Made by a program: the position numbers and the translations under genes
In this document: positions 3,109-64,000 of the stretch, one piece after another
How the letters are laid out: every line of letters begins with the position of its first letter
Position numbering within the stretch: position 1 is the stretch's first letter
Notes under the pieces: generated by a model
Told to the model about the DNA's origin: nothing
Databases searched by the model: none
The model's input: only the letters and a program-made list of their open reading frames with translations
DNA from: Clostridia bacterium
GTDB lineage: Bacteria; Bacillota; Clostridia; Christensenellales; Borkfalkiaceae
Direction of reading: 5' to 3'
NCBI GenBank assembly: GCA_017398825.1
Contig: JAFQEV010000053.1
Coordinates: 4,843 to 68,842 of the forward strand
DNA length: 64,000 nt

Positions 3109-3137
3109 AAGCAAGGCAATAAAGCCTTGCTTTTTTT
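3105..3137. terminator. Bidirectional intrinsic terminator (serves gap on the minus strand)
   Basis: A6-GCAAGGC-AATAAA-GCCTTGC-T7. Confidence 0.75.
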
Positions 3138-3149
3138 ACGTCTTAAAAT

Positions 3150-4297: not shown

Positions 4298-4418
4298 AAT
4301 TTTGTTCTCCTTATAAATTAACTTTATAGTTAAAATTTTAACAATTTACGGTGACCTCAACGTCACCTTGTTTATTATATCCGCTTTTTTTATTCAAGTC
4401 AAACGATTTTAAGCGGTT

Positions 4419-5546
4419 TTATTTCAAATTAGCAGGATTTAGGCATTTTAACTCGTCTAAAACGAATAAACCGTCTTTTCTAATTAAAACGTCGTCGAAA
4501 TAAATTTCACCGCCACCGTAGCTCTCACTCATAATGAGCACCATATCCCAGTGGAGAGAAGACTTGTTTCCGTTATCGCACTCCTCGTAGCACGAACCGG
4601 GCGTAAAGTGAATAGAACCTGCGATTTTTTCATCGAATAAAATATCGCCTATCGCGTCGTTTATAAAGGGGTTAACGCCAAAGGAAAACTCGCCGACGTA
4701 TCTCGCGCCCTCATCGATATCCAAAATCTCGTTGAGCTTTTCGGTGTAGTTGGCGGTTGCCTCTATAATCTTGCCATCTCTAAACTTTAAGCAAACGTTT
4801 TCAAACTTTAACCCGTCCTTTATAGAAGGGGCGTTAAAGGTTATAATTCCATTTACGCTATCTTTTACGGGTGCAGTAAAAATCTCACCGTCGGGGATAT
4901 TCCTTTTACCAGAACACTTAATTCCCGGCAAACCCTTAATCGAGAAGGTAAGGTCGGTGTTTTTAGCAACTAAACGCACCTTATCCGTCTTTTCGATAAG
5001 CGCACCTAAAGCGTCCATAGCCTTATCCATCTTGGAATAATCGAGGGTGCAAACGTCAAAGAAGAAATCCTCGAATTTTTCCGTGCTCATGCCAGCAAGC
5101 TGAGCCATTCCGGGATTAGGATAGCGGAGAATTACCCATTTGGTCTTATTCACCCTAAGGTCTAAGTGTACTCTATTAGAGTATACGCTACTGTATAATT
5201 TTCTCTTTTCCCCGTCAACGTCGGAAAGCTCGTAGGCGTTGTTGCCTCCGCGAATACCGATGTACGCGTCCATTTTCTCCATTAAATAGGAATCAACGTC
5301 CGCCATCATATTGCAAAGCTCCTCGTCAAGCCCGTTCATAACTAAGCGGTTGACTTGATTATCCCTTATCCAAACGAAAGGATATCCACCTGCTAAGTAT
5401 ACCTCTTTAACGAGCGCTTTAACGAGCGCGTTGTCAATATCAAAAGCCTCGATTAAGCACTTTTCACCTTTCTTGAGTTCTACTGAATAGTTAACTAAGC
5501 CTTTTGCAAGCTTGTTAATTCTCTCGTCTACCATATATGCCTCCAT
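4419..5546 (-). CDS. M29-family (AmpS/PepS-type) aminopeptidase
   Basis: Length of about 370 aa and conserved blocks (GGNNAYEL, VGEFSFGVNP, HWDMV) are typical of thermophilic-metalloprotease M29 aminopeptidases. The start could be ATG 5546 or 5534. Confidence 0.75.
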   Translation of the reverse strand: MEAYMVDERINKLAKGLVNYSVELKKGEKCLIEAFDIDNALVKALVKEVYLAGGYPFVWIRDNQVNRLVMNGLDEELCNMMADVDSYLMEKMDAYIGIRGGNNAYELSDVDGEKRKLYSSVYSNRVHLDLRVNKTKWVILRYPNPGMAQLAGMSTEKFEDFFFDVCTLDYSKMDKAMDALGALIEKTDKVRLVAKNTDLTFSIKGLPGIKCSGKRNIPDGEIFTAPVKDSVNGIITFNAPSIKDGLKFENVCLKFRDGKIIEATANYTEKLNEILDIDEGARYVGEFSFGVNPFINDAIGDILFDEKIAGSIHFTPGSCYEECDNGNKSSLHWDMVLIMSESYGGGEIYFDDVLIRKDGLFVLDELKCLNPANLK

Positions 5547-12022: not shown

Positions 12023-12035
12023 ATTCTTTCCCCCT

Positions 12036-12167
12036 TTAATTAAGCCATTCTTTATCAAGCCAGCTCTCTTTAACGTGAGCGTAGTCTTGAACGGTGGACG
12101 TAGTTACTACGTCAACAAGATTATACTCAATAATCTCAATTGACGGTTTTAAGTATAGTTTTTTCAT
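12036..12167 (-). CDS. Unannotated 43-aa small ORF heading the LRR operon
   Basis: ATG 12167 lies 5 nt after AAAGGAGAGG. Translation is MKKLYLKPSIEIIEYNLVDVVTTSTVQDYAHVKESWLDKEWLN. Its stop overlaps the RBS of the LRR gene. It is below the ORF-track size cut-off. Confidence 0.55.
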   Translation of the reverse strand: MKKLYLKPSIEIIEYNLVDVVTTSTVQDYAHVKESWLDKEWLN

Positions 12168-17452: not shown

Positions 17453-17587
17453 ATTAAGCGACGGCTCAAACGCAAATAAAACTAGGCAAACCCCGAAGAC
17501 AATACTCCCTGTATTGACGAGTGGGGTTAACAAAGTTTTACGCCGTGTTTCAGTCGGCGATTTTTGGTGGCTTATTAAAATTGAGCC
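17453..17587 (+). repeat. Divergent copy of the hairpin element (T2-j) between the PuuR-like gene and potA
   Basis: AGGCAAA, then CCCC-GAAGA-CAATAC-TCCCT-GTATTG-ACGAGT-GGGG. This is the same nested-stem and pyrimidine-loop architecture with different arm sequences. Confidence 0.5.
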
Positions 17588-18121
17588 TTAGAAAGTCGGT
17601 GGCGAACTTATCCAAAGAAATTTCGCCGTTTTATCTTTTACGTTTATAATGTAGTGTGATTTTGCCGAGGTGAAATAAAAACTCTCACCCTTTTTACAAG
17701 GGTATTTCTTCTTGCCGAGATGTATCACAATCTCGCCGTCAAGCACGTATCCGAATTCCTCGCCCTCGTGAGGCACGTCTTCCTCCGTAGCGCAGTTTTT
17801 ATTAAGCTCTATCAAAACGGGCTCCATACTGTTTTTTTGCGCGTTGGGAACAAGCCAGTTAAGCGTCATCGCCTCGGTTTTCTTCTCGATAAAGTCTTTA
17901 TCGGTAAACACGATGCGCTCGTCCTCCTCTTCGCTGAAAAAATCTTTTAACGTCGTTCCAAGCGCGGATAGTATATCTATTAAAGTGGCAATCGAGGGGC
18001 TGGTTAAATCATTTTCGAGCTGAGAAATGTAGCCTTTAGTGAGCTCACACCTGTTTGCCAGCTCTTCCTGCGTGAAATCGCATTGTAGCCTTAGCTCCTT
18101 AATTTTATCTCCAAGTTGCAT
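17588..18121 (-). CDS. XRE-HTH plus cupin regulator (PuuR-like)
   Basis: N-terminal HTH (LGDKIKELRLQCDFTQEELANRCELTKGYISQLEN) and a C-terminal cupin (GEEFGYVLDGEI...GESFYF). The start is preferred at ATG 18121 (GGAG upstream). Confidence 0.8.
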   Translation of the reverse strand: MQLGDKIKELRLQCDFTQEELANRCELTKGYISQLENDLTSPSIATLIDILSALGTTLKDFFSEEEDERIVFTDKDFIEKKTEAMTLNWLVPNAQKNSMEPVLIELNKNCATEEDVPHEGEEFGYVLDGEIVIHLGKKKYPCKKGESFYFTSAKSHYIINVKDKTAKFLWISSPPTF

Positions 18122-18243
18122 ATCAAGCACTCCGTTTTGTAACATTAAACTTTTTGTTTAGCAAAACTAAACAAGATAATTATATAAATACTACACTCTA
18201 TTGTCAATAATTTTATATATATTTTTTAAAAAAATATAATAAT

Positions 18244-20012: not shown

Positions 20013-20203
20013 AGATACTATTATATATGCTAATTGAATTTTTGTAAAGAACAAAAACTTAAATATGCATTTAGAAAAAGGCTAATAATATACAATAATT
20101 ACGCCCACAAAAGCGAGTTAGATAAATACCATAGACCTTTTTTACTCGTTGCCTATTACAGCGATTTTAAGCCGTTAGTTGCAAGTATAACGAGGCTCGC
20201 CAA

Positions 20204-20237
20204 ATAAAAAACTCCCGTTTGTTAAAAACGAGAGTTT
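20204..20237 (-). terminator. Intrinsic terminator of the prs transcript, downstream of two repeat elements
   Basis: AAACTCTCGTTT-TTAAC-AAACGGGAGTTT followed by T6 on the minus strand. Confidence 0.6.
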
Positions 20238-20453
20238 ATTGCAACTATTTTAAGGCGTTAGTTTGGGTATTAGGCGAGGCTCGTAAAGACGGGGCGGTTA
20301 CGATAGACCTTGTTGGTCATCGTAAATGCAACGGCTTTAAAACGAGAGTTTATTGCAACTATTTTAAGGCGTTAGTTTGGGTATTAGGCAAGGCTCGTAA
20401 AGACGGGGCGATTACGATAGACCTTGTTGGTCATCGTAAATGCAACGGCTTTA
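20225..20453 (+). repeat. Head-to-tail tandem duplication, 2 x 114 bp, of a hairpin element
   Basis: Units 20225..20338 and 20339..20452 differ at only 2 positions. Each carries ATTTTAAGGCGTTAGTTTGGGTATTAGGC(G/A)AGG plus the hairpin TACGAT-A-GACC-TTGTT-GGTC-ATCGTA. Confidence 0.9.
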
Positions 20454-20492
20454 TAGAAACGACGCATAATGCCCGAAATAACGACTTAAAAA
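20361..20492 (+). repeat. Intact TIR-hairpin element (T2-e) ending at the prs stop codon
   Basis: The left arm ATTTTAAGGCGTTAGTTTGGGTATTAGGCA and the reverse complement of the right arm (ATTTTTAAGTCGTTATTTCGGGCATTATGCG) match at about 26/31 positions. The right end abuts the TAA of prs (20493..20495). Confidence 0.8.
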
Positions 20493-21446
20493 TTAATAGT
20501 TGTTGTAAATATCCGACATCTTCTTATCTTGATATACGTTCTCAATAGCTAAAGCAAAGAGTTTTGCTGCGGATAAAACTTCGATTTTATCGAGCTTTTT
20601 CTCTTCGGGAAGAGCTACGGTATCTAATACTACGAGCTTGGTGATGTGAGAGTTTTTAATTCTCTCGATTGCAGGACCGCTAAATACAGCGTGCGAGCAA
20701 CAAGCGTAAATTTCTTTTGCACCGTTGTTGAAAAGTGCCTCAGCACCTTGAACGATAGTACCTGCGGTATCAATCATATCGTCAACCATCAAGCACTTCT
20801 TGCCCTTGATATCGCCGATTATGTTCATAACCTCAAGCTGATTTGCTTTGGGACGGCGCTTATCGATAATAGCCATCGAACAGCCGAGCTTGCTTGCAAC
20901 GTTTCTCGCTCTTGTAACCGAGCCAACGTCAGGAGATACAACGACGAAATCTTCGTCAACTTTATCCTGGAAATATTTAAAGAGTAACGGTCCACCAACT
21001 AAGTGGTCAACGGGGATATTGAAAAAGCCCTGAATTTGAAGTGCGTGAAGATCCATAGTTAAAATTCTATCCGCACCTGCAGTTTGAATAAGGTCGGCTA
21101 CAAGCTTTGCAGTAATGGGGTCTCTCGGTCTTGCCTTTCTATCTTGACGAGCGTATCCAAAATAAGGAATAACCGCCGTAATACGACCTGCAGACGCGCG
21201 CTTAACCGCATCAATCATAACGAGTAATTCCATTAAATTATCGTTAACAGGTTGGCAGGTTGACTGAATAATAAATACGTCTCTACCTCTTACCGTTTCG
21301 CCGATGTGAACATTTATCTCACCGTCACTAAAACGACCTACTTCAACGTCAGCAAGGTCCATTCTAAGCTCTTTAGCGATTGCTCGAGCCAAGTCCTTGT
21401 TTGAGTTACCAGAAAAAAGCTTTATCTCCGTTCCGTGTGTTATCAT
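20493..21446 (-). CDS. prs: Ribose-phosphate pyrophosphokinase
   Basis: [18 protein letters not shown] and DLHA motifs, plus the PRPP-binding loop [10 protein letters not shown]. Confidence 0.95.
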
Positions 21447-24693: not shown

Positions 24694-27600
24694 TTAAAGA
24701 GTTATATTGTTGTACTCTTTGGTTACGGTAGTAGAAGAAATAATCTTGTTGCCGTTACCGATAGCGCGTACTCTAATAATAATGTTAGTAATCGCTACAC
24801 CCTCGTTTGCCGTCTTCCAGTCAACGATAGTCTGTGCGTTCTTAGCGTTAATTTGAGGTTGTACTGCAACTACGGGAGAAGTAAATTCGCCACCGTTAAT
24901 GCTGAATTCTACCTCGTACTGAACAGCATCAGTAATGGTTGCCCAAGTAATGATGCCTTCACGCCAAGTAAAGCTACTTTCGTTGGGAACTGCAAGTAAA
25001 GTGATGTAGTAGCTGGTGTTGTTACCACCTGCGGACTGGGAGTCGAGATAGTAAATACCTTCATCGTCAAACGCACCGCCGAGAGCGTAAACTCTTGCAA
25101 AGTGCTTGCCTACTGCACCAGGATTGTGATTGCAAGTGCTTGCCTTTACGGTTTGCTCTACACCTGCGATAGTGTAAGAATAACCGTTGTTGTGCTCAGA
25201 TTCTTTAGTGATAGTAGCGATGATTTCGCCCGTTTCACTATAGCTCTCTGCACTGTAGGAAAGCTTAAAGTCAGGAGTGGTGAGCTGTTTGGTCTTTTGA
25301 ACGAACTTGTTCTCGTCAGAATTGATAGTAGTATAACCACCGTCACCGATAGCGATTACAACAACCGTGTAATCTTTTACTCTATTGAACTTCGGAGTGT
25401 AGCTGTAGGACTCGCCAGATACGTGAGTGTAGGTTTCAGCAACAACGCCGTCAACGTAAATAACGTAACTGGACGCAAGAGCGATACCGTCCCAAACGTA
25501 CTTGCCGGTTTCGCGACGAACTTCGGGAGTTTCAAGCTTGTATACGGTAACTTCGGTGCTCTTTTCAGAGTTGATATACTCAGTACCGTTACCGATAGCT
25601 TTTACTAAGAAGGTGTAACTGTTTCCGCCAACGAGAGAAGAGATATCCATAGTGGTACCGTTCTTTTCGCCGTTGTAGAGAGTGCCGTTCGGATAGTAAA
25701 CCTCGTAAGTCGGGGTGTACTTTTGAGCGTTAATGTTGCGGGGTGCATTCCAAATAAGTTGATTGTTGTTGAACGCAACGTCACCAAAGGTGGGAGCGGC
25801 AAGCTTAACGAACTTAGTGGTAAGACCAGCTTTAGAAGACATGTAGTAAACAGTCTTATCGGTGTTGAAATAGTTAGCAACGGTTTCCATATGAACGGTA
25901 GTACCTTCAGTAGTTATGTACTGGTTCATGTTCTGAATATCTTCAGCAGGAACGCTACCAAGACCGCTATCACCATCGAATACTACGAGGTAGCTTAAAG
26001 CGTGGAGAACGGGATCCCAGCCGAGAACGCCTTCAGACGCGTCAGCCGTGTTAATTCTAACGTTTCTCGGAGCTTCAAGGCGTTGAACGTTGATAGCGCC
26101 GGTGTAGTTAGACGCAAGCACGTCACTACCGTTACCCTTAGCACAAACTCTAACGTCGTAAGAGCCTGCCTCTAAGATAGATAAATCGTAAGAGGTGTTA
26201 CCGCTGGTAGCCTTCTCACCGTCAATGCTGATAGAATAGCCGTTTGCACCGTTGATAGTGCCGTACTTGTATTCAAAGCCTTCGATAGTGGGAGTTGCGG
26301 GCTGAGCGAGAACTTTAATACCAAAGGTTAAAGACTTAGTCTTTAAAGAACTTAAGTTAACGCGGGTAATGCCACCGTTTCTGGAAACGTTACCAACTGC
26401 TTGAATTGCAAAGTTGTAGCTCTGCTCTTCGATAACGCTGTTAGCAACAACGTCAGTTACGGAGAACTGAGTAGCAAGACCGGTCTTGTACTCTGCATTA
26501 TCTCTATAAAGCTTGTATCCGCTTGCACCTGCAACGGTTTTAAAGGTTACGGTAAAGCCCTTGGATACGTCAGCTGCGTCACTCGTAATGAAATCTTCGT
26601 CGTTTTGAACGGGAGCTGCAAGTCTGGTGATGTAAATAGGATCGGAGTACTTAGACTCGTAGGTATTTGCATCGGAGGTAATTGCCTTGAGTTGAACCAT
26701 ATAATCGCCTTCGTCAAGGTATGCATGAGCATAACCGTCCTCATCTCTTGCAAGGTTGCGCTCGGTAGAGTTACCGTCAGGAGTAGTCACTTTAACTTTG
26801 TAACCGCCTGCGTTCTGGATAAGATCCCAGTAAATACTCTTCATTTCTTGACCTTCGTGCTCAAGACTGTCGTTCCATTGTAAAACAGGAGTGGGTAAAA
26901 TAAGAACGGTCTTGGGAGTGGACCAGCTCGAGAAATAAGTGCTATCCGTGCTAACAGGCATAATGCAAACTTCAGTAGAAACGTTTGCAGTTAAGTTAGG
27001 ATACGAGTTAGTAGATAAAGTTTCGTTCTTTACGTTATTACCGATTTTAATTTTATAACCGCTAGCACCGCTAACTTCGTTCCAAACGAGAACGCCGTCA
27101 ACTACGGTAACGTTAGTTACGGTAGGTAAGTAAACGAAATCCTTCTTCTCGGAAAGCGCACCACTAAAGGTAGTAACACCGTTACCAACTGCCTTGATTT
27201 CAACTGAGAAGTTCAAGGCGTTAGAATCGTATGCAAACGAAGTACCGCTGTGGTTTTCAGCAAGAACAACGCCGTTAACTCTAACTTCGTAACCGGTAGC
27301 GCCAGCAACCGAGTTCCAGTTAATAGATGCGGTAGTGTTAGAATAAACGATTTGATCTTTGTTAACCTGACCAAGAATATCTAACTGCTTAGACTGGCTC
27401 CACTCTGAATAGTAAGAGGTGTCACCTGAAACGATAGCCTTTACTGCAATGTTGTGGTGACCAGCGGGCAAGTTGGTGTATTCGGTTTCATAGAACTCGT
27501 TAGGAAGTTCAGAACCGTTATCCTTAACCTTGTACGCGGTAGCGCCGTCAACAGCGTCCCAAGAAATATTACCAGTAGCGTCAATGCGAACTTCTTGAAT

Positions 27601-27921
27601 TTTCGCAAGCGGTTTAAAGGTCTTTGTAGCCTCGCCCTCTTCCTTTACTTTTTCGGATTTGTGCGTAGCTTTAATAGTTACGGTAAATTCAGCGCCGTTT
27701 GCTCTGAACGCATACCTGTTGGTATTAACCGTATACTCGTCACCACCGTTGATAGACACTTTGTACTGGTTAGCGTCTTGTACAGAGTCCCAGGTAATAG
27801 ACGAGCCGTCGTATCTGATGTTCGTGGGATCACCAAGCTCGAGGCCCTTACAACCCGTTAACCCTATCATTAACGTGAACGCACACGCGCACGCTAATAT
27901 TGTAAGTAACAGTTTTCTCAT
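24694..27921 (-). CDS. Large surface lipoprotein composed of at least 11 FN3-like modules
   Basis: Lipobox MRKLLLTILACACAFTLMIGLTGC (start ATG 27921 with RBS AAGGAG). Recurrent I(S/T/N)W(D/N)xVxGA(T/S)xYxV modules of about 90 aa. Confidence 0.8.
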   Translation of the reverse strand: MRKLLLTILACACAFTLMIGLTGCKGLELGDPTNIRYDGSSITWDSVQDANQYKVSINGGDEYTVNTNRYAFRANGAEFTVTIKATHKSEKVKEEGEATKTFKPLAKIQEVRIDATGNISWDAVDGATAYKVKDNGSELPNEFYETEYTNLPAGHHNIAVKAIVSGDTSYYSEWSQSKQLDILGQVNKDQIVYSNTTASINWNSVAGATGYEVRVNGVVLAENHSGTSFAYDSNALNFSVEIKAVGNGVTTFSGALSEKKDFVYLPTVTNVTVVDGVLVWNEVSGASGYKIKIGNNVKNETLSTNSYPNLTANVSTEVCIMPVSTDSTYFSSWSTPKTVLILPTPVLQWNDSLEHEGQEMKSIYWDLIQNAGGYKVKVTTPDGNSTERNLARDEDGYAHAYLDEGDYMVQLKAITSDANTYESKYSDPIYITRLAAPVQNDEDFITSDAADVSKGFTVTFKTVAGASGYKLYRDNAEYKTGLATQFSVTDVVANSVIEEQSYNFAIQAVGNVSRNGGITRVNLSSLKTKSLTFGIKVLAQPATPTIEGFEYKYGTINGANGYSISIDGEKATSGNTSYDLSILEAGSYDVRVCAKGNGSDVLASNYTGAINVQRLEAPRNVRINTADASEGVLGWDPVLHALSYLVVFDGDSGLGSVPAEDIQNMNQYITTEGTTVHMETVANYFNTDKTVYYMSSKAGLTTKFVKLAAPTFGDVAFNNNQLIWNAPRNINAQKYTPTYEVYYPNGTLYNGEKNGTTMDISSLVGGNSYTFLVKAIGNGTEYINSEKSTEVTVYKLETPEVRRETGKYVWDGIALASSYVIYVDGVVAETYTHVSGESYSYTPKFNRVKDYTVVVIAIGDGGYTTINSDENKFVQKTKQLTTPDFKLSYSAESYSETGEIIATITKESEHNNGYSYTIAGVEQTVKASTCNHNPGAVGKHFARVYALGGAFDDEGIYYLDSQSAGGNNTSYYITLLAVPNESSFTWREGIITWATITDAVQYEVEFSINGGEFTSPVVAVQPQINAKNAQTIVDWKTANEGVAITNIIIRVRAIGNGNKIISSTTVTKEYNNITL

Positions 27922-27979
27922 AGTTTTTTCTCCTTTTATATATTCAACAAGATGCAATCTTGTTTAAACTTTTCAAGTT

Positions 27980-30900
27980 TTATTCTGCCTCAGTTCCGAT
28001 AGTAAAGTTTGAGGTTGACGCAATCAAAGTTGCATCGTCTGAACTATCGCCGTTAACAGTACCCGTAAAGGTGTAGTAATTGATTGACGAAGAGCCGTTA
28101 TCAGTACTTACTGAGCCGAATAATCCACCAACCGTCTCAGAGCCGGAAACGTTTGCCGAACAATGAATTTCGTTCATGGTAACTAATATGCTACCGTTGT
28201 TTCCACTGCCCCAAGTGTTAACGTAAACGTCACCAGCAATACCGCCTACAGCATCGTTGCCGTTAACAGCTCCGCTGTTATTAACGTTAGTAAATGCAAC
28301 GGTGTAAGAACCGCCGTTATATGCATTATCCCAGCCGTTGTACACTCTACCTAATATACCGCCTACGTAATCTTTACCCATTACCGAACCCATGTTAGTG
28401 AGGTTGATAAAGGAATAAGATCCCGTACTTGATACGTCGCCAACTAAACCGCCAACGTAGTTTGCGTTACGTGCAGTAACGTCACCAACGTTTTCACACT
28501 CTTCAATCGAATGAGTAAGTCTACCTGCAATACCGCCTACGTACGAACCGTTTTTGGAGTATGCAATAGAAACTGCGTTATCGCACTTTTCAACGTAATA
28601 GCCGTGACCTACGTAACCGCCTACGTAACCGTAGTAATTAGTACCGTCAATTATCACGCCCGTTGCAACTATGCTACTGTTAACGTTGTAGCACTCGATA
28701 AGCATAACGTTTTGTAACCTACCTGCTAAACCGCCAACATACGCCTCGCCGGTAATCGTTGCCGAGCTCGTGCTCGCCTCGATTGAGGAACTACCCGTAT
28801 CGGAGTATGCATCGCCTACTAAACCGCCTACGTAATTAACGCCAGTTATATCACCCGTGTTGTTGAGTGCGCTTGCGCTGATAAGTACACTGCCGTTATT
28901 ACCACTACCCCAAGTGCTTGCACTTATGTTGCCGATAATACCGCCTACTTGAATTCCACCCTCAACGTCACCGCTGTTAGTTGCGTTTATTACCTTAACG
29001 CTGTAAGAACCGCCGTTATAACCGTTATCCCAGCCGTTGTAAACTTCGCCGATAACGCCACCAACGTAATCCTTACCGGTAACGTCACCAGAGTTGTTAA
29101 GAGTATTGAACTCGTACGAGCCGGTGCAGTTAACTAAGCCTACTAAACCACCAACGTAGTTGGAGTTTGTTGCCGTAACGTTTGCGGTGTTGGTGGACTT
29201 GGTAATAGCATTGTCAAGCCTACCTGCGATACCGCCTACGTAAATGCCGTTCTTAGCGTAATTAATTTCAACTGCGTTGTCACAGCCCTCTACGTAATAT
29301 CCGTGACCTACGTAACCACCTACGTAGCCGTAATAAGTAGTTCCGTCTAAAATATATCCCGTTGCGGTTACCGTTGAACCCTCGTTAGAGGAATCGATAA
29401 GCTTAACGTTTTCAAGCCTACCTGCTAAACCGCCTACGCGCGCATCAGCAGTAATATCTGCCGTGCTCGTACTACCGGTAATCGATGAACCGCCGTTATC
29501 CGAATATGCTCTACCGAATAAACCGCCGACGTAAGTAGTACCTTGAACGTCACCATCGTTATTTAAAACGTTCACGTTAACGATTACGCTACCGTTATTA
29601 CCGCTACCCCAAGTGCTTGCGCTGAGGTTGCCCATAATACCGCCTACGTAATTTTGACCAACTACAGCACCGTTGTTAGTGAGGTTGATTACCTTTAAGG
29701 TGTGAACGGTGGTGTTATAAGCTTGATCCCAACCGTTGCTGAGCTCGCCTATAATACCGCCTACGTAATCTTTACCCTCAACGTCACCGCTGTTAGTGAG
29801 GACAGCTACGTCATATCCGCCGTTGTAGTTGAGTAAACCTACCAAACCGCCAACGTAGCTTGCGTTCTTTGCAGTTACGTTTCCGGTGTTAGTTACGTTC
29901 TTTAAGGTGTTTGCAAGTCTACCTGCAATACCACCTACGTAAATACCCTTTTCAAGATATCTAACGTTTACGTCGTTATCGCAATCTTCAACGTAGTAGC
30001 CGTAGCCTACGTAACCGCCGATGTAACCGTAATAAGTAGTTCCGTCTAAGGTGTAACCCTCGGCTATCAATATCGTGCCTGCGTTAGAACAGGTTATAAG
30101 GCTTACGTTTTCAAGCCTACCTGCCAAGCCGCCTACGTACGAATCAGCAGTAATAGTCGCCGCACTTTGAGAGTTGGTAATAGAAGAAGTACCCGTATCG
30201 GAATATGCATATCCGATAAGTCCGCCTACGTGAGTAGTACCAGTAACGTCACCGCCGTTTGCAAAACTCGTTATAGTGAGCGTTACGCTACCGTTAGAAC
30301 CACTGCCACTCGTGTAAGTGGTAACGTAGCCGATAATACCGCCGACGTATCCTTCACCGCTAACCTTTCCGCTGTTAGTTGCATTGCCAAGCTTAAAGGT
30401 GTGACCAGCGCTGTTATAGCCTTGCGACCAAGTGTTAGAGATAAAGCCGTAGATACCGCCTACTCTATCACCGCCTTCAACCTCGCCTTCGTTTACAAGC
30501 TTAGCCATTAACGCCATATCGCCGGACTTGCTGAACAAGCCGATGATACCGCCGGTTGCATAATCGCCGATTACTTTACCGTAGTTGTAAAGATCGCTAA
30601 ATCCGGTAGCAGTAGCGTAACCGATGATACCGCCACCGTATCTCTTAATAGAAATAGTACCGTAGTTTTCAGCGTTCGTTATCGAACCTCCATTAAACTG
30701 ACCTGCTATACCGCCTGCGGAAACGTTTTCCTCATAGGTTGCAGTAGTTACGTTTGCAAAGTTCGAACAGTTGGTAATCGTACCCGTGGAGTAACCTACC
30801 AAACCGCCTATTCTACAGAAATCGCCTTTCACCTCACCCGAAACTTTAACGTTTTCAAGCGTGCCGGTGAGTTCTGCACACACACCGCCTACGTATACGG

Positions 30901-33097
30901 AATTATAAGAGGTGCTTATAATGCTTACGTTCTCGAACGTAACTTCCTTTATAGTTCCGGAAACCTTGGAGAATATTCCGAGGTTGTTAGCGGAGGTCGT
31001 TAAAGTAAAGTTTTTAATCGCAAGCCCGTTACCGAGGAAAGTTCCCTTGAATTCAAAGGGTACCCACTCGCCGTCAAAATCGCTCATATCAACGTCTGCT
31101 ACTAAAACGTAATTTGCAGACGGATTATCCTTCATTGCCATAAACGACGCGCCGTCGTAAACGAAAATGCTGTTGGGGTCTTCTTCGTAAAGGTATGCGT
31201 AAACGGTAATATCCGTAGTGTATTTCCAAGCGGAAACGCCCTTGCCCTCGCCGTTGGTAATTACCTTGTTGTTGTATTTCCAACCGATAAACCTATATCC
31301 GTCACGCGATGCAACGGGGAGCTCGAAGGTAGAACCGTATTCAACCTCAACGCTCGTTTCGTCACAAGTTACGCCGTCACCAGCAACAAGGGTTACCGTG
31401 TAAACGATAGGTTCGTACAAGAGGTCGATAGTCATGTGGCTATCACCCATAGTAAAGTTGTACTCAAGCTCAGTTTCCTTAACGTCACCGTCTACTGACC
31501 AGCCGTTGAATTTGTATCCCTCGTTTAAGGTTGCGGTGAGCGTAACGTCGTCACCCTCTAAATAATACTCTTCAACCTCAACCGAACCCGCAGCCTCGAT
31601 GCTTACGTTAACGGTGATGTGTAATTTTTGTTTGTAGTGAGCGTAAAGCTGAATTTCATCTGCATCGAACTCTAACGGAGCAAGGCTTTCACCGTCAGCC
31701 TCGGTAATCTTGTTAGCGCCCTCGTCTTGCCCGTCAAACCAGCCTAAGAAAATATATTCCGTGTAAATGGGAATGGGCAAGGTGTAGTCTTCGCCGTATC
31801 TAATGAACTTAAAGCTCGGAGATACGAAACCGCCACCGCCGTTGAGCACGAGCTTTTTGCTCTCGCCTATGTATTTTGCGTACAAGTTTTCAACGCCGTA
31901 CGTTCCCTCCTCGATAGAGGTGTAGGGAATTCCGCTGAAATCTTCCTCTGCGTACCAGTTAACGAAGGTGTAGTTGTTCTTCTCAGGCTTGGGAAGTTCA
32001 ACCGAATCTTCAATGGTGTAATCAAAGGTCGTTTCAGAACAAGTACCGCCGTTGGTGTGGAGAGTTAAGGTGTAAGTCACCATATCCCACCTTGCAAAGA
32101 ACTCGGTGTACGCGCCCGTGTAGTAAACTTTATCAATGGGAGTGCCCGTCAATAACTCGTTGTTGTACCAGCCCATAAATTGATAGCCGGGCTTGGTATC
32201 GAGAGCTTCGGGAACGTACGGTTCGTCTTCATATACCCTATATTCAACGGGGTCTTCACTAACCATATCGTAGAAGGTGAGAACTTTATATCTCTTCCAG
32301 AACGCATAAAGCCTTACGTCACCTGTAATCTTGCCCTCAAACTCAATAAACCTGCTAGTCGAGGTCGACCAACCGATAAGTTCCTTCTTTCCATCGTCTA
32401 CCGTCGGGAAAGTAGTAGTATCAACTTCAGAGCCGTAGGGAACGTCAACGGAATCTTCTCTATAAGTGCCGTCGTTATAATCGAACGTGATGGTGTACTT
32501 TTTAACCTCGTACTCGGCAACTAAACTAACCTTGCCGTCGTTTGATATCTCGTAATTAGTGTCGTTAAACACCATTTTATCGGATAAAACCATCGCTCCG
32601 TTAGAAATTTGAACGCCGTCACAGTACCAGCCCTTAAAGTCAAAACCCTGAAGCGACGCTTCAGGCATAAGAGTAACGTTAGTGTTGTACGTAACGTTCA
32701 TAACGTTTTCAGTTGTAGAAAGCGTGCCCTCGCCCGCGTCAAATTCAAACGTGTAGGTAGCGGGCAACCAGTGCATATACAAGGTGATATCCCTGTCAAA
32801 CACTACCGTGCTAACGCCCCTCTCGTCAATAATCTCATTGCCTTCGCCGTTGGGTAAATCGTACATACCCATAAATACGAAGTGCTTGCGCTTAGGAAGA
32901 GTTGCAAAGGTGAACGGGTCACCCTTGTTAACCGTCATCGTAAGCGGTGCGCTACTCTCGTATCTGTAATACGTTATGGTAACCTCGTCTGTAGTGCCAC
33001 CCTCGTCATCCTTACAACCAACGAGCGTCGCCGTGAATAACGAGCAGACGAGCATTACCGCGATAATTAATAAAAGCCTAAACTTTTTCACTTTCAA
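27980..33097 (-). CDS. 1705-aa surface lipoprotein: N-terminal Flg_new repeats plus a C-terminal array of GLUG-type (VGGLxG/IGGIAG) repeats
   Basis: Lipobox LFTATLVGC. GxxFxGW modules occupy residues about 30-640, followed by dozens of YVGG(I/L)(I/V/A)G motifs. The TTG start lies 5 nt after GAGGAGG and directly follows the upstream stop. Confidence 0.8.
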   Translation of the reverse strand: MKVKKFRLLLIIAVMLVCSLFTATLVGCKDDEGGTTDEVTITYYRYESSAPLTMTVNKGDPFTFATLPKRKHFVFMGMYDLPNGEGNEIIDERGVSTVVFDRDITLYMHWLPATYTFEFDAGEGTLSTTENVMNVTYNTNVTLMPEASLQGFDFKGWYCDGVQISNGAMVLSDKMVFNDTNYEISNDGKVSLVAEYEVKKYTITFDYNDGTYREDSVDVPYGSEVDTTTFPTVDDGKKELIGWSTSTSRFIEFEGKITGDVRLYAFWKRYKVLTFYDMVSEDPVEYRVYEDEPYVPEALDTKPGYQFMGWYNNELLTGTPIDKVYYTGAYTEFFARWDMVTYTLTLHTNGGTCSETTFDYTIEDSVELPKPEKNNYTFVNWYAEEDFSGIPYTSIEEGTYGVENLYAKYIGESKKLVLNGGGGFVSPSFKFIRYGEDYTLPIPIYTEYIFLGWFDGQDEGANKITEADGESLAPLEFDADEIQLYAHYKQKLHITVNVSIEAAGSVEVEEYYLEGDDVTLTATLNEGYKFNGWSVDGDVKETELEYNFTMGDSHMTIDLLYEPIVYTVTLVAGDGVTCDETSVEVEYGSTFELPVASRDGYRFIGWKYNNKVITNGEGKGVSAWKYTTDITVYAYLYEEDPNSIFVYDGASFMAMKDNPSANYVLVADVDMSDFDGEWVPFEFKGTFLGNGLAIKNFTLTTSANNLGIFSKVSGTIKEVTFENVSIISTSYNSVYVGGVCAELTGTLENVKVSGEVKGDFCRIGGLVGYSTGTITNCSNFANVTTATYEENVSAGGIAGQFNGGSITNAENYGTISIKRYGGGIIGYATATGFSDLYNYGKVIGDYATGGIIGLFSKSGDMALMAKLVNEGEVEGGDRVGGIYGFISNTWSQGYNSAGHTFKLGNATNSGKVSGEGYVGGIIGYVTTYTSGSGSNGSVTLTITSFANGGDVTGTTHVGGLIGYAYSDTGTSSITNSQSAATITADSYVGGLAGRLENVSLITCSNAGTILIAEGYTLDGTTYYGYIGGYVGYGYYVEDCDNDVNVRYLEKGIYVGGIAGRLANTLKNVTNTGNVTAKNASYVGGLVGLLNYNGGYDVAVLTNSGDVEGKDYVGGIIGELSNGWDQAYNTTVHTLKVINLTNNGAVVGQNYVGGIMGNLSASTWGSGNNGSVIVNVNVLNNDGDVQGTTYVGGLFGRAYSDNGGSSITGSTSTADITADARVGGLAGRLENVKLIDSSNEGSTVTATGYILDGTTYYGYVGGYVGHGYYVEGCDNAVEINYAKNGIYVGGIAGRLDNAITKSTNTANVTATNSNYVGGLVGLVNCTGSYEFNTLNNSGDVTGKDYVGGVIGEVYNGWDNGYNGGSYSVKVINATNSGDVEGGIQVGGIIGNISASTWGSGNNGSVLISASALNNTGDITGVNYVGGLVGDAYSDTGSSSIEASTSSATITGEAYVGGLAGRLQNVMLIECYNVNSSIVATGVIIDGTNYYGYVGGYVGHGYYVEKCDNAVSIAYSKNGSYVGGIAGRLTHSIEECENVGDVTARNANYVGGLVGDVSSTGSYSFINLTNMGSVMGKDYVGGILGRVYNGWDNAYNGGSYTVAFTNVNNSGAVNGNDAVGGIAGDVYVNTWGSGNNGSILVTMNEIHCSANVSGSETVGGLFGSVSTDNGSSSINYYTFTGTVNGDSSDDATLIASTSNFTIGTEAE
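28030..30520 (-). repeat. Intragenic tandem repeat, about 3.5 copies of 699 bp (233 aa)
   Basis: The landmark CTACCTGC(A/G)ATACC(G/A)CCTACGTA recurs at 28521, 29220 and 29919, an exact 699-bp period. Copies are roughly 80% identical by eye. Confidence 0.8.
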
Positions 33098-38904: not shown

Positions 38905-39678
38905 ATGTGCTTATTTAACAACTGCAATTCAAACTGCCAAAGATGCTGTAATAGAGTAATCGTCGGTCCACAAGGTCCGCAAGGCCCCGTTGGTCCTAGA
39001 GGTCCTGTTGGACCTACCGGTCCTACCGGCGCAACGGGTGCAACGGGCGCAACCGGCCCTCAAGGTCCTATCGGTTTAACAGGCGCTACAGGCGCAACTG
39101 GTCCGCAAGGTCCTGCTGGTCCTATCGGTCCTCAAGGCCCTCAAGGTGAAACAGGTGCAACCGGCGCAACGGGTCCGCAAGGTCCTATCGGTTTAACAGG
39201 TGCAACCGGTGCTACAGGTCCGCAAGGTCCTGCTGGTCCTATCGGTCCCCAAGGCCCTCAAGGTGAAACAGGTGCAACCGGCGCTACGGGTCCTCAAGGC
39301 CCGGCAGGTACGTCCGATGCGATATACGCTAGTAGCGGTGTTTCAACCGTAGCGGCAGGAGCAACCGCTCCCTTAGCTTTAAACACCGTTACTCCCATTA
39401 GTTCAATGAACGTTGGAGCAAACGCCGTTACTCTATCAGACGCGGGGTACTACCTCGTTTCCTACTATATCACAGGAACTGGAACTCCCATTGACTATTC
39501 TCTCACTCTTAACGGAACTGCCGTATCTACTATTGACGACGCGTCCACCGGCGTAACAACCGCCTCGAAAACCGTGCTTGTCAATGCAACGGCTGGCTCG
39601 TCCCTCATCCTCGTTAACACGGGCGCTACTGAACTTTCCGTTACCGATACCGGCTTAACGGTAGTTAAAATTGCTTAA
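38905..39678 (+). CDS. Collagen-like (G-X-Y)n protein with a Cys-rich N-terminus and a BclA-like globular C-terminus
   Basis: [18 protein letters not shown], then about 38 uninterrupted GXY triplets ([15 protein letters not shown]...), then a beta-rich C-terminal domain of about 120 aa. Confidence 0.85.
39064..39297 (+). repeat. Two tandem 117-bp (39-aa) repeats inside the collagen region
   Basis: GGTCCTATCGGTTTAACAGG recurs at 39064 and 39181. The encoded 13-triplet unit is identical, with a few synonymous differences. Confidence 0.85.
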
Positions 39679-46455: not shown

Positions 46456-46487
46456 AAATTGATTTTTCTCTTTTACTTTACTACATT

Positions 46488-46600
46488 GCTCCCGAAATTG
46501 TTTTTAGATTAAAAAGAATTTTGGGATAAAGGAGCAACCGCTTTTTTGTCTTAGCGTTTACCTTTAGGTTAACGCTTGACAATCTATGCGCGTTGCGACG
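46488..46600 (+). repeat. 113-bp repeat (hairpin H plus T1 core), copy 3
   Basis: 110/113 identical to 2831..2943. Confidence 0.85.
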
Positions 46601-46702
46601 TAGGCAAGGCTCGACGGCAAGCCGTTGGGCGTAATAGACCTCTTTGGTCATTACGGTCACGGATTGACGACAGAAACGACGCAGAACGAAGTTTATAATT
46701 CG
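46601..46702 (+). repeat. TIR-hairpin element (T2-f), left arm truncated, ending at the pyrH stop codon
   Basis: About 90% identical to 55405..55503. Hairpin is CGTAAT-A-GACC-TCTTT-GGTC-ATTACG. The right arm ...GAAGTTTATAATTCG runs into the TAA of pyrH at 46703. Confidence 0.8.
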
Positions 46703-55129: not shown

Positions 55130-55143
55130 ACTTAAAAAACACA

Positions 55144-55173
55144 AAAAACCGCAGGTAAAACTGCGGTTTTTTT
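55144..55173. terminator. Bidirectional terminator
   Basis: AAAAACCGCAG-GTAAAA-CTGCGGTTTTT. Confidence 0.8.
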
Positions 55174-55261: not shown

Positions 55262-55382
55262 ATTAAAAGGCGTCGTACACAAGCAAGACAAGGCTCGACA
55301 ATACTTTGACGGGCATAATAGACCTTTTTGGTCATTATGGTCGCAAAGCATTGACAGTAACACAGTAAATAAAGGATTAAAA
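55262..55382 (+). repeat. Intact TIR-hairpin element (T2-g)
   Basis: P1 is CAATACTTTG/CAAAGCATTG and the inner hairpin is CATAAT-A-GACC-TTTTT-GGTC-ATTATG. The right arm is GACAGTAACACAGTAAATAAAGGATTAAAAA. Confidence 0.75.
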
Positions 55383-55512
55383 ATTTAAGACGTTAGAAAC
55401 GAGTTAGGCAAGGCTCGACGGCAAGCCGTTGGGCGTAATAGACCTTTGTGGTCATTACGGTCACGACTTGACGGCAGTAACGACGCATAACGAAGTTTAT
55501 AATGGCTTAAAT
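55383..55512 (+). repeat. Intact TIR-hairpin element (T2-h), head-to-tail with T2-g and ending on the DUF47 gene stop codon
   Basis: Left arm ATTTAAGACGTTAGAAACGAGTTAGGCAAGG. The reverse complement of the right arm is ATTTAAGCCATTATAAACTTCGTTATGCG. The last T (55512) is the first base of the stop-codon triplet 55512..55514. Confidence 0.8.
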
Positions 55513-56132
55513 TAGGTGTTTTTCATAATAACCGAAACAATACAATCACTTGCGTGTTCGCACGCGTCAACACAAGCCTCTAAGCTTTCGTAGATTTTAC
55601 GCCAAGAAATAGTTTCTAAGACGTCTTTCGAATTTTTGGTGAGCGTGCGAATGGAAGAAAGATAGAGTTTGTCACAATCTTCTTCAACGTCGTTAAGCTC
55701 AACTACTAATGCGTGAATTTTCTTAGATCTCTTAAAGTTCTCAAATTCGTTCATAATTTCGCAAAGAATATCGCAAGCTTTTACTATGTTTTTTGCAACT
55801 GATATAGAGGGTGCATCGATAGTCTTTATATCATAAATATAAAACTTTTGTAAAACCTCTTCGATAAGGTCAACAACGTCATCAAGCTGATGGCTGAGCA
55901 TATCAAGGTCTTCACGATCAACGGGAGTTACGAAAGCCTTTGCTAAAGCCCCGTCCATCTCGTGTTTTTTAATATCTGCACTATGCTCTATCTCGTGCAT
56001 CGTTTTGAGCATTTCCTCAATGTTTTCCGGGTTAAAGTTTTCAAGGCATTCAACGAGATAGTTTGCCGCCTTTTTGGAAAGTTCCGCACTTGCTATGAAA
56101 TTATCAAAATAAAATTTATCACCTTTTGCCAT
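55512..56132 (-). CDS. DUF47 (PhoU-like, YkaA-type) protein
   Basis: 206-aa helical protein immediately downstream of a PiT transporter gene, which is the canonical pairing. Confidence 0.75.
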   Translation of the reverse strand: MAKGDKFYFDNFIASAELSKKAANYLVECLENFNPENIEEMLKTMHEIEHSADIKKHEMDGALAKAFVTPVDREDLDMLSHQLDDVVDLIEEVLQKFYIYDIKTIDAPSISVAKNIVKACDILCEIMNEFENFKRSKKIHALVVELNDVEEDCDKLYLSSIRTLTKNSKDVLETISWRKIYESLEACVDACEHASDCIVSVIMKNT

Positions 56133-57630: not shown

Positions 57631-57722
57631 GGAAAAGTACCCAAGTGGCTGAAGGGGCTCCCCTGCTAAGGGAGTAGTACGTGAATAACGTAGCGCGGGT
57701 TCAAATCCCGCCTTTTCCGCCA
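57631..57722 (+). tRNA. tRNA-Ser (anticodon GCT), CCA encoded
   Basis: Manual cloverleaf fold. Acceptor GGAAAAG/CTTTTCC, 3-bp D stem CCC/GGG, and anticodon stem CTCCC/GGGAG with loop CTGCTAA. Long variable arm TACGT-GAATA-ACGTA and T arm GCGGG-TTCAAAT-CCCGC, then GCCA. Confidence 0.9.
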
Positions 57723-60276: not shown

Positions 60277-60364
60277 ATTTAAGACGTTATATAGAATAAT
60301 TTAAGACGTTATACAGAATAATTTAAGACGTTATACAGAATAATTTAAGACGTTATACAGAATA
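60277..60364 (+). repeat. Tandem array, 4 x 22 bp (ATTTAAGACGTTATACAGAATA), continuing into the left arm of the next element
   Basis: Units are 60277..60298 (one mismatch), 60299..60320, 60321..60342 and 60343..60364. The unit begins with the same ATTTAAGACGTTA as the element's terminal repeat. Confidence 0.9.
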
Positions 60365-60491
60365 ATTTAAGACGTTAGTTGCAAGTTAGACGAGGCACAA
60401 GATTTTTTAACGGCGAGATTGACCTCCTTGGTCATCGAGGTGTTAAAAAATCGCAGTAACAAAGTATAACGTAGCAAATAACGGATTAAAT
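60365..60491 (+). repeat. Intact TIR-hairpin element (T2-i), archetype copy
   Basis: Left arm ATTTAAGACGTTAGTTGCAAGTTAGAC. The reverse complement of the right arm is ATTTAATCCGTTATTTGCTACGTTATAC. An 11-bp perfect P1 pairs GATTTTTTAAC (60401..60411) with GTTAAAAAATC (60442..60452). The inner hairpin is GAT-T-GACC-TCCTT-GGTC-ATC. The right end overlaps the last codon and stop (ATT TAA) of the 269-aa gene. Confidence 0.85.
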
Positions 60492-61295
60492 TTCGGGGAC
60501 TTCATCATCGTAATGACGCTCCAACCATGAAAGAGCAACGTCGTAAGCCTCGTAATCAAGGTCTGCCATGGTGTTGGTGTGTAAAACGATGCCTTCAGCC
60601 TCGCCCTTTTTGATTTTATCAAGATAAAAATCAAGTTGCCACTCAACAGCTTTACCAGTCGCCTCTTTTTCATCACCGAAATTCCAAAGATAGCAACCGA
60701 ACATTCTCTTTTGCTTGGGGGTAATTGCCTTGAATTCCTCCCACTTTTGAGGAATTACTGGTACGCCCTTATCCTCGCACCAAGTCCACATAATAACACC
60801 GTCAAACGGCTCAATATACTTTTTGAACTCTTCGTTATACTGGGGATAATCGTTGATTACCTCGCCAAACTCGTGAGTGTATAAAACCATCCACATATCA
60901 AGAGATTTTACCTCGTTGTTGTGGAGGCGTTCGTGAACCTTCCAAAGATTTTCAACCGGCATTTTTACGAAAGAACCGTAGCGGTGGAAATCATCAAACA
61001 CAACCCTCGTAATGTTTTTAAAATCGCCAGCCTCTTTTATAAGCGGTTCAATAACGGACGGGTCGCTACCTGCATCATAGCACTCCCAGCCAACCTCTTT
61101 TAAGGGCTTGAACGACTTGTTGTATTGACGGCGATCAACGTCTACTTGAACGGGAACCATAAAAGTTCTATCAATGCCCATATAACCGCAACATTCCATA
61201 GGCGTCATACGGGAAACCTTGTGATTGCCAAATTCGTTGTTATATCTTCCTTCAGGGTGACCCCAAAGCCAAAGCCTATCTCTAAGTTTTGCCAT
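60486..61295 (-). CDS. Hypothetical 269-aa cytoplasmic protein
   Basis: Good RBS (AAAGGAGAG) and a consensus promoter upstream. No motif recognised (MAKLRDRLWLWGHPEGRYNNEFG...). Confidence 0.6.
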   Translation of the reverse strand: MAKLRDRLWLWGHPEGRYNNEFGNHKVSRMTPMECCGYMGIDRTFMVPVQVDVDRRQYNKSFKPLKEVGWECYDAGSDPSVIEPLIKEAGDFKNITRVVFDDFHRYGSFVKMPVENLWKVHERLHNNEVKSLDMWMVLYTHEFGEVINDYPQYNEEFKKYIEPFDGVIMWTWCEDKGVPVIPQKWEEFKAITPKQKRMFGCYLWNFGDEKEATGKAVEWQLDFYLDKIKKGEAEGIVLHTNTMADLDYEAYDVALSWLERHYDDEVPEI

Positions 61296-63935: not shown

Positions 63936-63958
63936 TAATCTAAACTTACGTAGTAAGC

Positions 63959-63994
63959 AAAAAGACACAAGGTGTAAATACCTTGTGTCTTTTT
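63959..63994 (+). terminator. Intrinsic terminator
   Basis: AAAAGACACAAGG-TGTAAATA-CCTTGTGTCTTTT. Confidence 0.85.
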
Positions 63995-64000
63995 GTATAT

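Follow-up and report, generated by a model that had tools for sequence, protein, structure and literature searches.

A stretch of 64,000 nucleotides from a Clostridia bacterium (contig JAFQEV010000053.1; "the window" hereafter means this stretch at its full length) carries many copies of a short repeat of about 128 nt, each of which is one long imperfect hairpin from end to end. This repeat family is real, abundant and undescribed, and it falls within a known kind of small palindromic mobile repeats. Three observed properties make it stand out: covariation that runs from one end of the element to the other, a near-absolute polarity of docking on TAA stop codons and terminator T-runs, and a one-sided decay of its arrays. 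The reading that I favor, with a probability of roughly 0.55, is that it is a non-autonomous mobile DNA element, REPIN-like and akin to a MITE (miniature transposable element with inverted repeats), which depends on its hairpin, inserts directionally and is mobilized in trans.

The window was scanned with an nhmmer profile built from six of its copies and with a covariance model run with the filters off. The profile returned ten significant matches and the covariance model six full copies of 120–130 nt scoring 63–122 bits, all of them on the + strand, in line with the single orientation that the initial annotation had claimed for every copy. A 13-nt terminus occurs 13 times in the window, in contrast to 1.16 occurrences expected. 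On the opposite strand of the same loci the covariance model gives only 12–25 bits, as against 115–122 bits on the + strand; the element is therefore directional despite being a near-palindrome. All six loci that had been listed at the outset hold clear copies except 17453–17587, where there is only a degenerate relative, and the figure of at least 12 full or partial copies is true only if fragments are included, the full copies numbering six and the large partial ones two (Table 1).

The anatomy of the element was read from an alignment of ninety distinct full copies over 137 columns, across which the terminal inverted repeats, the complementary but variable outer stem and the single-base bulge at a fixed position, all proposed from the window copies, are visible. 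The terminal inverted repeats are 14 bp long (TTTTAAGnCGTTAG / ATAACGGmTTAAAA), carry stop codons in two of the three frames, and are 89–100% conserved at pairs 2–6 and 9–13. Next inward are two short modules, each of which exists in several alternative, mutually complementary versions (AAACAA/..GTTT, TTGCAA/..GCAA and TTTGGGT/GCCCGAAA for module 1; GCAAGAC/GTATTGC, GTTAGGC/GCATAAC and others for module 2). They are followed by a conserved asymmetric internal loop, formed by AAGGCTCG in the 5' arm and GCAGTAAC in the 3' arm, and, inside this loop, by a hypervariable stem (P1), then an inner stem in which a single base is bulged at a constant position, and an invariant apical hairpin, GACCTTnTTGGTC (GACC-TTnTT-GGTC). 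The proposal that structure is conserved rather than sequence is correct in that covariation is very strong, but too general, since sequence is also conserved in the termini, the AAGGCTCG/GCAGTAAC boxes and the apical hairpin.

The structure predicted by RNAalifold has 26 pairs, of which 22 show compensatory changes. The 40-pair end-to-end hairpin derived from the alignment was compared with 500 shuffles and with controls in which the partners were slid by 1–3 columns. Paired cells amount to 92.0% of 3,592 (76.7 ± 0.4% when shuffled, at most 46% when slid), 33 of the 40 pairs are changed on both sides (23.2 ± 1.6 and at most 22, respectively), 566 cells have both-side changes (186 and at most 162), and the covariation score is 0.414 (0.155 and at most 0.094). 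On each of these four measures the observed value lies beyond all 500 shuffles, although the counts overstate the number of independent events because the structure was derived from the same sequences and the copies share ancestry. Even so, three or four pair types occur at balanced frequencies in many of the pairs, for instance A-U 48/U-A 36 or U-A 51/C-G 36. The outermost pair also pairs (U-A 54, A-U 13, C-G 5, G-C 2), and the outer bases form palindromic 8-mers (TTTTAAAA, ATTTAAAT, CTTTAAAG and AATTAATT). An end variant, AATTAA...TTAATT, is common to four unrelated subfamilies, and could reflect either a palindromic target (NNTTAAN'N') or a need for the ends to pair.

Outside the left (distal) end, many copies further carry a tail of ~20 nt whose sequence is loosely conserved. 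The left terminus directly follows the best form of this tail, AAAGCCTATTCAATGCTCT, in 18 of 18 good matches, and a relaxed version is found in 22 of 76 left flanks, as against 4 of 76 control windows. The element contains no open reading frame (ORF), and a scan of the window detected no sigma-70-like promoter inside the copies, which led to the rejection of an outward-reading or self-transcribed element. Nor is the element an intrinsic terminator: its sense strand ends in CTTAAAA, no terminator is called inside any copy, and the real terminators adjoin the elements.

After the copies had been grouped into arrays, each array end was examined for ORFs of 80 aa or more. In 52 of 71 arrays the right end (in the + sense of the window) lies at most 30 nt from the stop codon of a convergent gene, the distance being between −6 and +4 nt in 47 of the 71; the docked stop is TAA in 47 of the 52. 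The left end is docked on a stop in 2 of 75 arrays. The five stop-codon contacts described in the window by the initial annotation all hold (gap, +1 nt; prs, +1; pyrH, 4; PhoU_div/DUF47, 0; the 269-aa gene, −5). Two registers are observed: in 21 arrays the element's xTTTAA comes directly after the native stop, and in about 20 the TAA within the element's own TTTAA serves as the stop. The ORF extends 14–25 nt into the element in four arrays, and seven or eight more arrays lie 34–47 nt from the stop, separated from it by an intrinsic terminator whose T-run merges with the element's TTTTAA. Common to these sites is a T-run and then AA on the sense strand, whether this is a TAA stop within TTTAA or the U-tract of the gene's terminator, and the element has the same sense at all of them.

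The relation to terminators is less uniform. A good terminator lies 10–100 nt beyond the array in ~35 of 79 arrays, which places these arrays in the 3' untranslated region (UTR), but ~13 arrays come just after a terminator. In the window the copies at prs, PhoU_div and pyrH and the gap-proximal copy 3151–3277 precede the terminator, and copy 2983–3108 follows that of gap; the statement that the element would be transcribed as 3' UTR is thus right for the former group and wrong for the latter. The copy after the 269-aa gene is intercistronic, the scan flagging no terminator before the next gene. The docked orientation is the local majority orientation of genes in 63 of 87 arrays, and with only 4 of the 87 in a clear minority context the effects of replication and gene orientation could not be told apart.

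One genome per species was searched for a 16-base seed pattern, which matched at least 108 loci. Among the matches listed, the covariance model identified 109 copies in 594 kb from 14 species-level metagenome-assembled genomes (MAGs), and real copies occur solely in MAGs labelled Christensenellaceae, Clostridia or Clostridiales bacterium; the hosts, where isolate names give one, are sheep or yak hindgut. The negative control, 527 kb of seed-bearing DNA of other taxa together with viral contigs, yielded a single weak match of 25.5 bits. The 27 seed matches in viral contigs were rejected as chance, the covariance model confirming 0 of them. In a scan of metagenomes 16 of 120 seed-match loci carry real copies, none with a transposase. 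Rfam gave no match in the window at the gathering score except one tRNA, and none at E ≤ 10 for the two copies tested; BLAST of one copy against phage and plasmid collections gave none either, no paper on such repeats in this lineage was found in the literature, and the 10 kb past the window end hold no further copy. Identity with a known family, lack of covariation and local confinement had been set beforehand as grounds for giving the family up, and none of the three came out against it, with 33 of the 40 pairs changed on both sides, 0 of the 500 shuffles reaching the observed values, and copies on many contigs of the 14 MAGs.

The family is multi-copy and has recently been amplified: copies 95–99% identical lie on different contigs of one MAG (L numbers designate the sampled loci) in SIG397 (L099, L037, L092), SGB_6712 (L022, L094, L108), RGIG6162 and SGB_3407. 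Copies at orthologous gene ends are 58–76% identical (behind the 269-aa gene in five genomes and behind prs in four), the flanking genes being ~83–89% identical. Each such copy has an 84–94% identical relative at a non-orthologous site, often in another species, the exception being the atypical L028 (68%). Arrays have a characteristic layout in the sense of the gene, namely the stop codon, an intact copy, 13–60 nt of filler, an older copy, and then more filler or remnants, where the filler is the tail motif, sometimes with a duplicated piece of the host terminator. The apical hairpin or the CGAGCCTT box marks the exact point where the older copies begin, so that they lack the gene-proximal arm, and ~37 distal-arm remnants were counted versus at most two proximal-arm remnants. 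This layout suggests that new copies arrive at the stop-codon side and that older ones decay one-sidedly.

Another strain of the window's species has a 31-nt mini element, consisting of the two termini only, in place of the distal PhoU_div copy. Four docked genes and a neighboring one were traced in assemblies of the same species from other samples; bar this one mini element, content is identical at the four loci compared, among them pyrH, prs and the 269-aa gene. Four orthologous sites in related species served as candidates for an empty site. The "empty" gene end of L040, GAAAAAGCCTTATTTTAAAAA, still resembles an element end and encodes a conserved C-terminus, and the sites of L018, L079 and L042 hold T/A-runs (ATCTAAAAA; CGCTTTTTT^A) with flanks too diverged to align. 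Window positions 88–216 and L078, tried as a filled/empty pair, do not make a clean one. Tandem junctions keep both full ends (CTTAAA followed by TTTAAG, sometimes with CTCG or TTTA between), a single TTAA never being shared, and a compensated end variant, TTTTTA...TAAAAA (window 3151–3277), keeps the inverted complementarity and breaks the direct repeat. Short-read contigs often end inside elements. Logan/ENA contigs of the window's species end 25–70 nt after docked genes, and position 1 of the ENA metagenome contig k141_1797279 (ERZ27256764), which matches the window, corresponds, by coordinate arithmetic, to window 2645, inside the repeat cluster 2641–3279.

Three further observations were made at gene ends. 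The last codons of an orthologous gene (I-E/D-K-A-L-F-stop) come from the element terminal repeat in L098 (~4340–4480) and from a leftover piece in the element-free L040 (~764–800); as the leftover piece is still coding, element ends can become fixed as coding sequence. Window 180–207, directly after the stop of a 785-aa gene, reads TAGTAACGCAGTTAG on the sense strand, which resembles the element's GCAGTAACGCAGTTATGC box in an orientation opposite to that of all other copies. The orthologous site in L078 holds a normal full copy, and the window sequence may be the remnant of a rare inverted insertion. Finally, the orthologous copies L018 197–326 and L079 6420–6549, from two different species-level MAGs (SGB_6712 and SIG397), are 98.5% identical and their adjoining 350-nt flank 87.7%, which suggests recent transfer, gene conversion or constraint.

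How might such an element move? In the reading that I favor, arrays would grow at the stop-codon side, older copies being pushed outward, and a trans-acting enzyme would recognize the hairpin, fixed bulged base and asymmetric internal loops included, probably in its folded single-stranded form. Recognition of the hairpin would explain both the selection for pairing and a strict polarity without visible target duplication. It would resemble that of HUH/Y1 transposases (IS200/IS605, RAYT) acting on bulged hairpins, which makes such an enzyme the preferred guess. HUH/Y1 enzymes (IS608, RAYT) act on a central bulged hairpin on single-stranded DNA, and insertion is polar, directed by a short motif, and leaves no duplication. 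The effects on the host (placement in 3' UTRs, provision of stop codons and last codons, broken assemblies) would be by-products, which may be secondarily exploited.

Several points weigh against this reading. The better-folding strand is the one antisense to the docked gene, for co-oriented genes neither the mRNA nor the lagging-strand template, which is predicted by no simple single-strand model. The near-identical content of strains implies that activity is not high on the strain time scale. A metagenome pattern search for an empty PhoU_div site found nothing, and no clean empty site, excision footprint or target duplication could be demonstrated in the orthologous sites, tandem junctions and strains compared. 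The polarity could partly reflect selection or replication direction, given the 63 of 87 arrays in majority orientation. Lastly, no Y1/RAYT-like and no multi-copy ORF was found in ~0.7 Mb of element-bearing DNA, a negative that is weak because only 8-kb slices of each genome were covered. The Y1/RAYT probes for phmmer, which were approximate queries, found nothing near elements, and detected an IS200-type TnpA in the unrelated L061 and L083. No ORF family recurs at unrelated element loci, all-against-all clustering returning housekeeping orthologues and ABC ATPases only. Likewise, no insertion sequence with the element termini was found in the window or in the ~0.7 Mb of slices; a regular-expression hunt for solo termini flanking a longer element was too noisy to use. 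Within the window, Pfam identifies housekeeping and surface proteins only, and no integrase; among the 40 proteins scanned there it detects neither a transposase nor a recombinase, which bears out the initial annotation on this point.

The foremost alternative, itself rather unlikely, is that the element is a structured 3'-UTR RNA useful to the host, similar to REP/BIME or ERIC sequences, which would protect the upstream mRNA from 3' exonucleases or set processing or termination. Its placement is that of such an RNA: 47 of 71 arrays lie within −6 to +4 nt of a stop, ~35 arrays have a terminator 10–100 nt further on and hence lie inside the transcript (in the window, at prs and PhoU_div), and the copy behind the 269-aa gene is intercistronic. 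Covariation is strong, and the sense-strand RNA has a folding energy of −30 to −37 kcal/mol (z-scores −3.8 to −5.3). Both strands, however, fold far better than shuffled sequence (z-scores −2.4 to −7.4), and in 85 of 93 copies the stabler of the two is the + strand, antisense to the docked gene, the mean difference being 6.9 kcal/mol. Base pairing outside the Watson-Crick rules points in the same direction. A model-guided alignment of 99 copies contains 106 G:T and 50 A:C cells, but two fixed positions give 56 of the G:T cells, and elsewhere 50 G:U stand against 46 A:C, so that there is no bias on either strand, whereas an RNA under selection would be expected to tolerate wobble pairs on one strand only, and the conserved fold is not necessarily that of an RNA. 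Most of the other mismatches are purine-purine ones on the + strand and occupy conserved positions, which makes them inherited features and not independent evidence. Also difficult to reconcile with an RNA role are the ~13 arrays and the copy 2983–3108 that lie past a terminator with unchanged polarity, the unrelated subfamilies at orthologous sites, which mean that no locus-specific RNA is conserved, and the tolerance of one-armed remnants and mini copies. Such a role is compatible with mobility, would be secondary at best, and is plausible for the ~35 pre-terminator arrays.

Somewhat less likely again is a classical MITE, whose 14-bp termini would be bound by a DDE transposase, whose TTAA or TA duplication would be hidden in the A/T-rich ends, and whose hairpin would be a fold-back by-product. 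The inverted termini are indeed conserved at 89–100% per position, TTAA is present at both ends, and the outer 8-mers are palindromic; an intergenic element of less than 500 bp with AT-rich ends also fits the definition of prokaryotic MITEs (PMC10969869). A symmetric target with symmetric ends would nevertheless not be expected to produce so strict a polarity (52/71 versus 2/75). Tandem junctions that never share one TTAA, and the TTTTTA...TAAAAA variant, which breaks the supposed direct repeat, speak against a hidden duplication; covariation covers the whole element, well beyond protein-binding termini, and no insertion sequence with these ends was found in the ~0.7 Mb.

A further, improbable possibility is that the element is copied in, being laid down in the direction of transcription, directly 3' of the TAA or T-run, from a folded single strand or a read-through transcript, as a bacterial counterpart of SINEs or a hairpin-guided element. 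This would fit the fact that copies share the sense of the docked gene, the truncation of old copies on the gene-proximal (5') side only, at the apical hairpin or CGAGCCTT box, and the replacement of subfamilies at gene ends. If true, it would be a mechanism not yet described for bacterial repeats, distinct from RAYT/IS200 or DDE mobilization. Least probable of all is a tyrosine recombinase site on folded single-stranded DNA, like attC or the Xer-dependent attP of CTX phage, in which the joined termini would be a core with 11-bp inverted arms and an A/T spacer: a central structure conserved over sequence, the fixed bulge, a location at ORF 3' ends in one polarity and tandem junctions (TAACGGmTTAA-A(A)TT-TTAAGnCGTTA) that appear laid out like a recombinase core all recall one, but the triplet order is GTT...AAC on both strands, the reverse of attC, the neighbors are housekeeping genes and not cassettes, the window has no integrase, and the elements are scattered at operon ends and form no single array.

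The mobile element that I favor can be placed by comparison with described systems. REPINs, the closest functional analogue, have conserved ends, a less conserved spacer, a long hairpin with common compensatory changes, clusters, and "defunct" single-armed copies (PMC3116915); the intermediate proposed for them is a tailed hairpin, the tail being single-stranded, and their distribution in extragenic space is random (PMC3116915). The present family is likewise non-coding, ~100–130 nt long and extragenic in many copies, with conserved ends, a covarying spacer, a full-length hairpin, tandem clusters and single-armed remnants, to which it adds a ~20-nt one-sided tail. Its arms (TTTTAAGnCGTTAG plus modules), by contrast, are not palindromic and have no GTAG-type head, a local palindrome (CCGTT-TAT-AACGG) being present at one end in one subfamily only; no RAYT was seen near any copy in the slices sampled, the host is a Clostridia lineage and the polarity at stop codons far exceeds anything reported for REPINs. 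With arms that are no REP palindromes, and with no RAYT found in those slices, the family falls outside the definition of REPINs. Prokaryotic MITEs are small, non-autonomous and intergenic, with AT-rich ends, terminal inverted repeats and stable stem-loop transcripts (PMC10969869). The family resembles those known as Correia/NEMIS, RUP and QMITEs in size, intergenic location, 14-bp inverted termini, stem-loops and lack of autonomy, but differs in that no target duplication could be demonstrated and no parent insertion sequence was found in the slices sampled, and in its strict orientation and its covariation along the full length. The initial description as MITE-like ends combined with REP/BIME-like structure and placement is accurate.

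Two other known groups and one type of recombination site were also compared. ERIC/IRU and YPAL elements are imperfect palindromes of ~127 bp in transcribed intergenic regions, co-transcribed with their neighbors, whose hairpins, as RNA, influence the stability of mRNA. ERIC is found in either orientation and in Enterobacterales, in contrast to the single orientation of this family relative to the docked gene; no relation is detectable in Rfam, and on host range membership is unlikely. IS608 and ISDra2 have a hairpin with an extrahelical base and insert in a polar manner at a short sequence, without duplication and with an expected orientation to replication. The bulged imperfect hairpin and the polar insertion would be shared between the family and IS200/IS605 elements (PATE), but the latter have two short hairpins near their ends and no terminal inverted repeats, instead of a single central hairpin and paired ends, and no TnpA lies near element copies in the slices sampled. 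Sites of the attC type, with a core in the order RYYYAAC...GTTRRRY, are imperfect palindromes of ~57–141 nt conserved in structure over sequence, with fixed bulges and one polarity at ORF 3' ends. The family differs in its dispersal, its neighbors (gap, prs, pyrH, PhoU_div) and the lack of an integrase in the window, and membership was rejected, both strands reading ...CGTTAG/T...A/CTAACG..., with the core order reversed.

The copies, fragments and adjoining terminators of the window are listed in Table 1.

Table 1. Element copies, remnants and associated terminators in the window
Feature	Positions	Strand	Score and context
Right-end fragment	2775–2799	+	TATAACGGATTAAA joined to one copy of the second repeat family; weak nhmmer match, positions 102–127
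Short-form copy	2804–2982	+	Second repeat family (2826–2958) interrupts left arm after AGGGCTC; then AGGCTCGA...TCGAGC hairpin; no right arm
Full copy	2983–3108	+	79.2 bits; variant apical hairpin (GTACttgttGTAC); just after gap terminator, T-run merging with element end
Bidirectional terminator hairpin	3109–3137	.	A-run, GCAAGGC-AATAA-GCCTTGC, T-run; between the two gap-locus copies
Full copy	3151–3277	+	118.1 bits; 1 nt from TAA of gap (3278–4297, minus; Pfam Gp_dh)
Degenerate relative	17457–17561	+	14.5 bits, E 0.19; missed by nhmmer; adjoins stop of HTH-cupin gene (17588–18145, minus)
Left-arm remnant	20165–20203	+	Ends after AGGCTCG box; nhmmer positions 2–39; beyond prs terminator
prs intrinsic terminator	20202–20234	-	CTCTCGTTT-TTAAC-AAACGGGAG then TTTTTTATTT; distal to the two newer copies; read from sequence
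Older copy without gene-proximal arm	20249–20356	+	nhmmer positions 2–90; covariance model 20269–20356, 33.6 bits
Full copy	20362–20491	+	115.4 bits; 1 nt from TAA of prs (20493–21446, minus)
Copy without left arm	46593–46698	+	nhmmer model positions 15–118; covariance model 46603–46683, 53.3 bits
Intrinsic terminator, PHO4-PhoU_div operon	55143–55172	-	12-bp stem then T-run (terminator scan); beyond both copies
Tandem second copy	55263–55382	+	63.1 bits; distal to 55383–55512; right arm short by ~10 nt
Full copy	55383–55512	+	122 bits; distance 0 to TAA of PhoU_div (DUF47) gene (55512–56132, minus; Pfam PF01865)
Four tandem 22-bp units	60277–60364	+	Each is left terminus (ATTTAAGACGTTAT) plus 8–9 nt; distal to full copy; repeat family D10
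Full copy	60365–60491	+	118.5 bits; right end supplies TAA of 269-aa gene (60486–61295, minus); overlap 5 nt

At the gap locus, the bidirectional terminator was read from the sequence and is unlisted by the terminator scan, which absorbs its T-run into the stem. The short-form copy there is based on nhmmer positions 2–41 (left-arm fragment 2804–2841) and on repeat families D13 and D15. At prs, the older copy is followed by a duplicated piece of host flank, and the covariance model gives a weak match at 20165–20255; orthologous prs terminators were detected by a separate scan in L009, L046 and L030. A 114-bp tandem duplication at this locus (20222–20335/20336–20449, 97% identity; family D17) comprises part of an element copy and the first half of the prs terminator flank, and its content is also present in other assemblies of the same species whose contigs span the locus. 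The copy at pyrH ends 4 nt from the stop (46703), and its left arm is replaced by an unrelated repeat of ~120 nt (46483–46600; family D13). As the terminator of the PHO4-PhoU_div operon lies beyond both copies, both would be transcribed within the 3' UTR. A weak model match at 63958–63995 was considered as a mini copy and rejected as an ordinary terminator.

The repeat that interrupts some of these copies is a second, unrelated one of ~120 nt, found in the window at 2727–2785, 2826–2958 and 46483–46615 in three copies that are 94–98% identical. Its form is GCTCCCGAAATTG...hairpin and T-run...TTAGCGTTTACCTTTAGGTTAACGCTTGACAATCTATGCGCGTTGCGACG, and every copy either lies inserted in a copy of the main element or is joined to one; two are at the AGGCTC box, where many truncated copies of the main element also end. 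Arrays of a unit of ~27 nt precede the tail of the main element in several MAGs, at L063 (~3990–4130), L050, L092, L108 (in two places) and L041 (~20–150). This unit consists of a conserved AAAAGWTATATTTTT and a short hairpin whose stem varies from unit to unit (GCCTTTGGC, GTCTGTCGAC, GACTTTGTC), and looks like another structured repeat family with covarying stems. The window also contains a cluster of large, repetitive, apparently surface proteins (27980–33097, 24694–27957, 10016–12058, 38905–39678 and 208–2565), which includes a 1,705-aa ORF with 699-nt repeats of nested 117-nt periodicity, a 1,087-aa ORF, a BspA-type LRR_5 protein, a collagen-repeat or BclA-like protein with 9-nt periodicity, and a Listeria-Bacteroides repeat protein. 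The sole Rfam match of the window is a tRNA gene of 89 nt at 57631–57719 on the + strand.

A repeat that occurs about once per 10 kb in the window is a major genome feature that is absent from annotation resources, and a few hundred copies per genome are obtained by extrapolation rather than by measurement. The hosts are abundant, mostly uncultured bacteria of the ruminant hindgut, in which the element rewrites gene ends, supplying the stop codon of ~20 docked genes and the last 3–8 codons of a few. It also has a practical cost, as it breaks short-read assemblies. The covariance model can be used for a genome census and for the search for a single co-occurring gene, and the combination of strict docking, whole-length covariation and one-sided decay offers a handle on how hairpin repeats are recognized and inserted.

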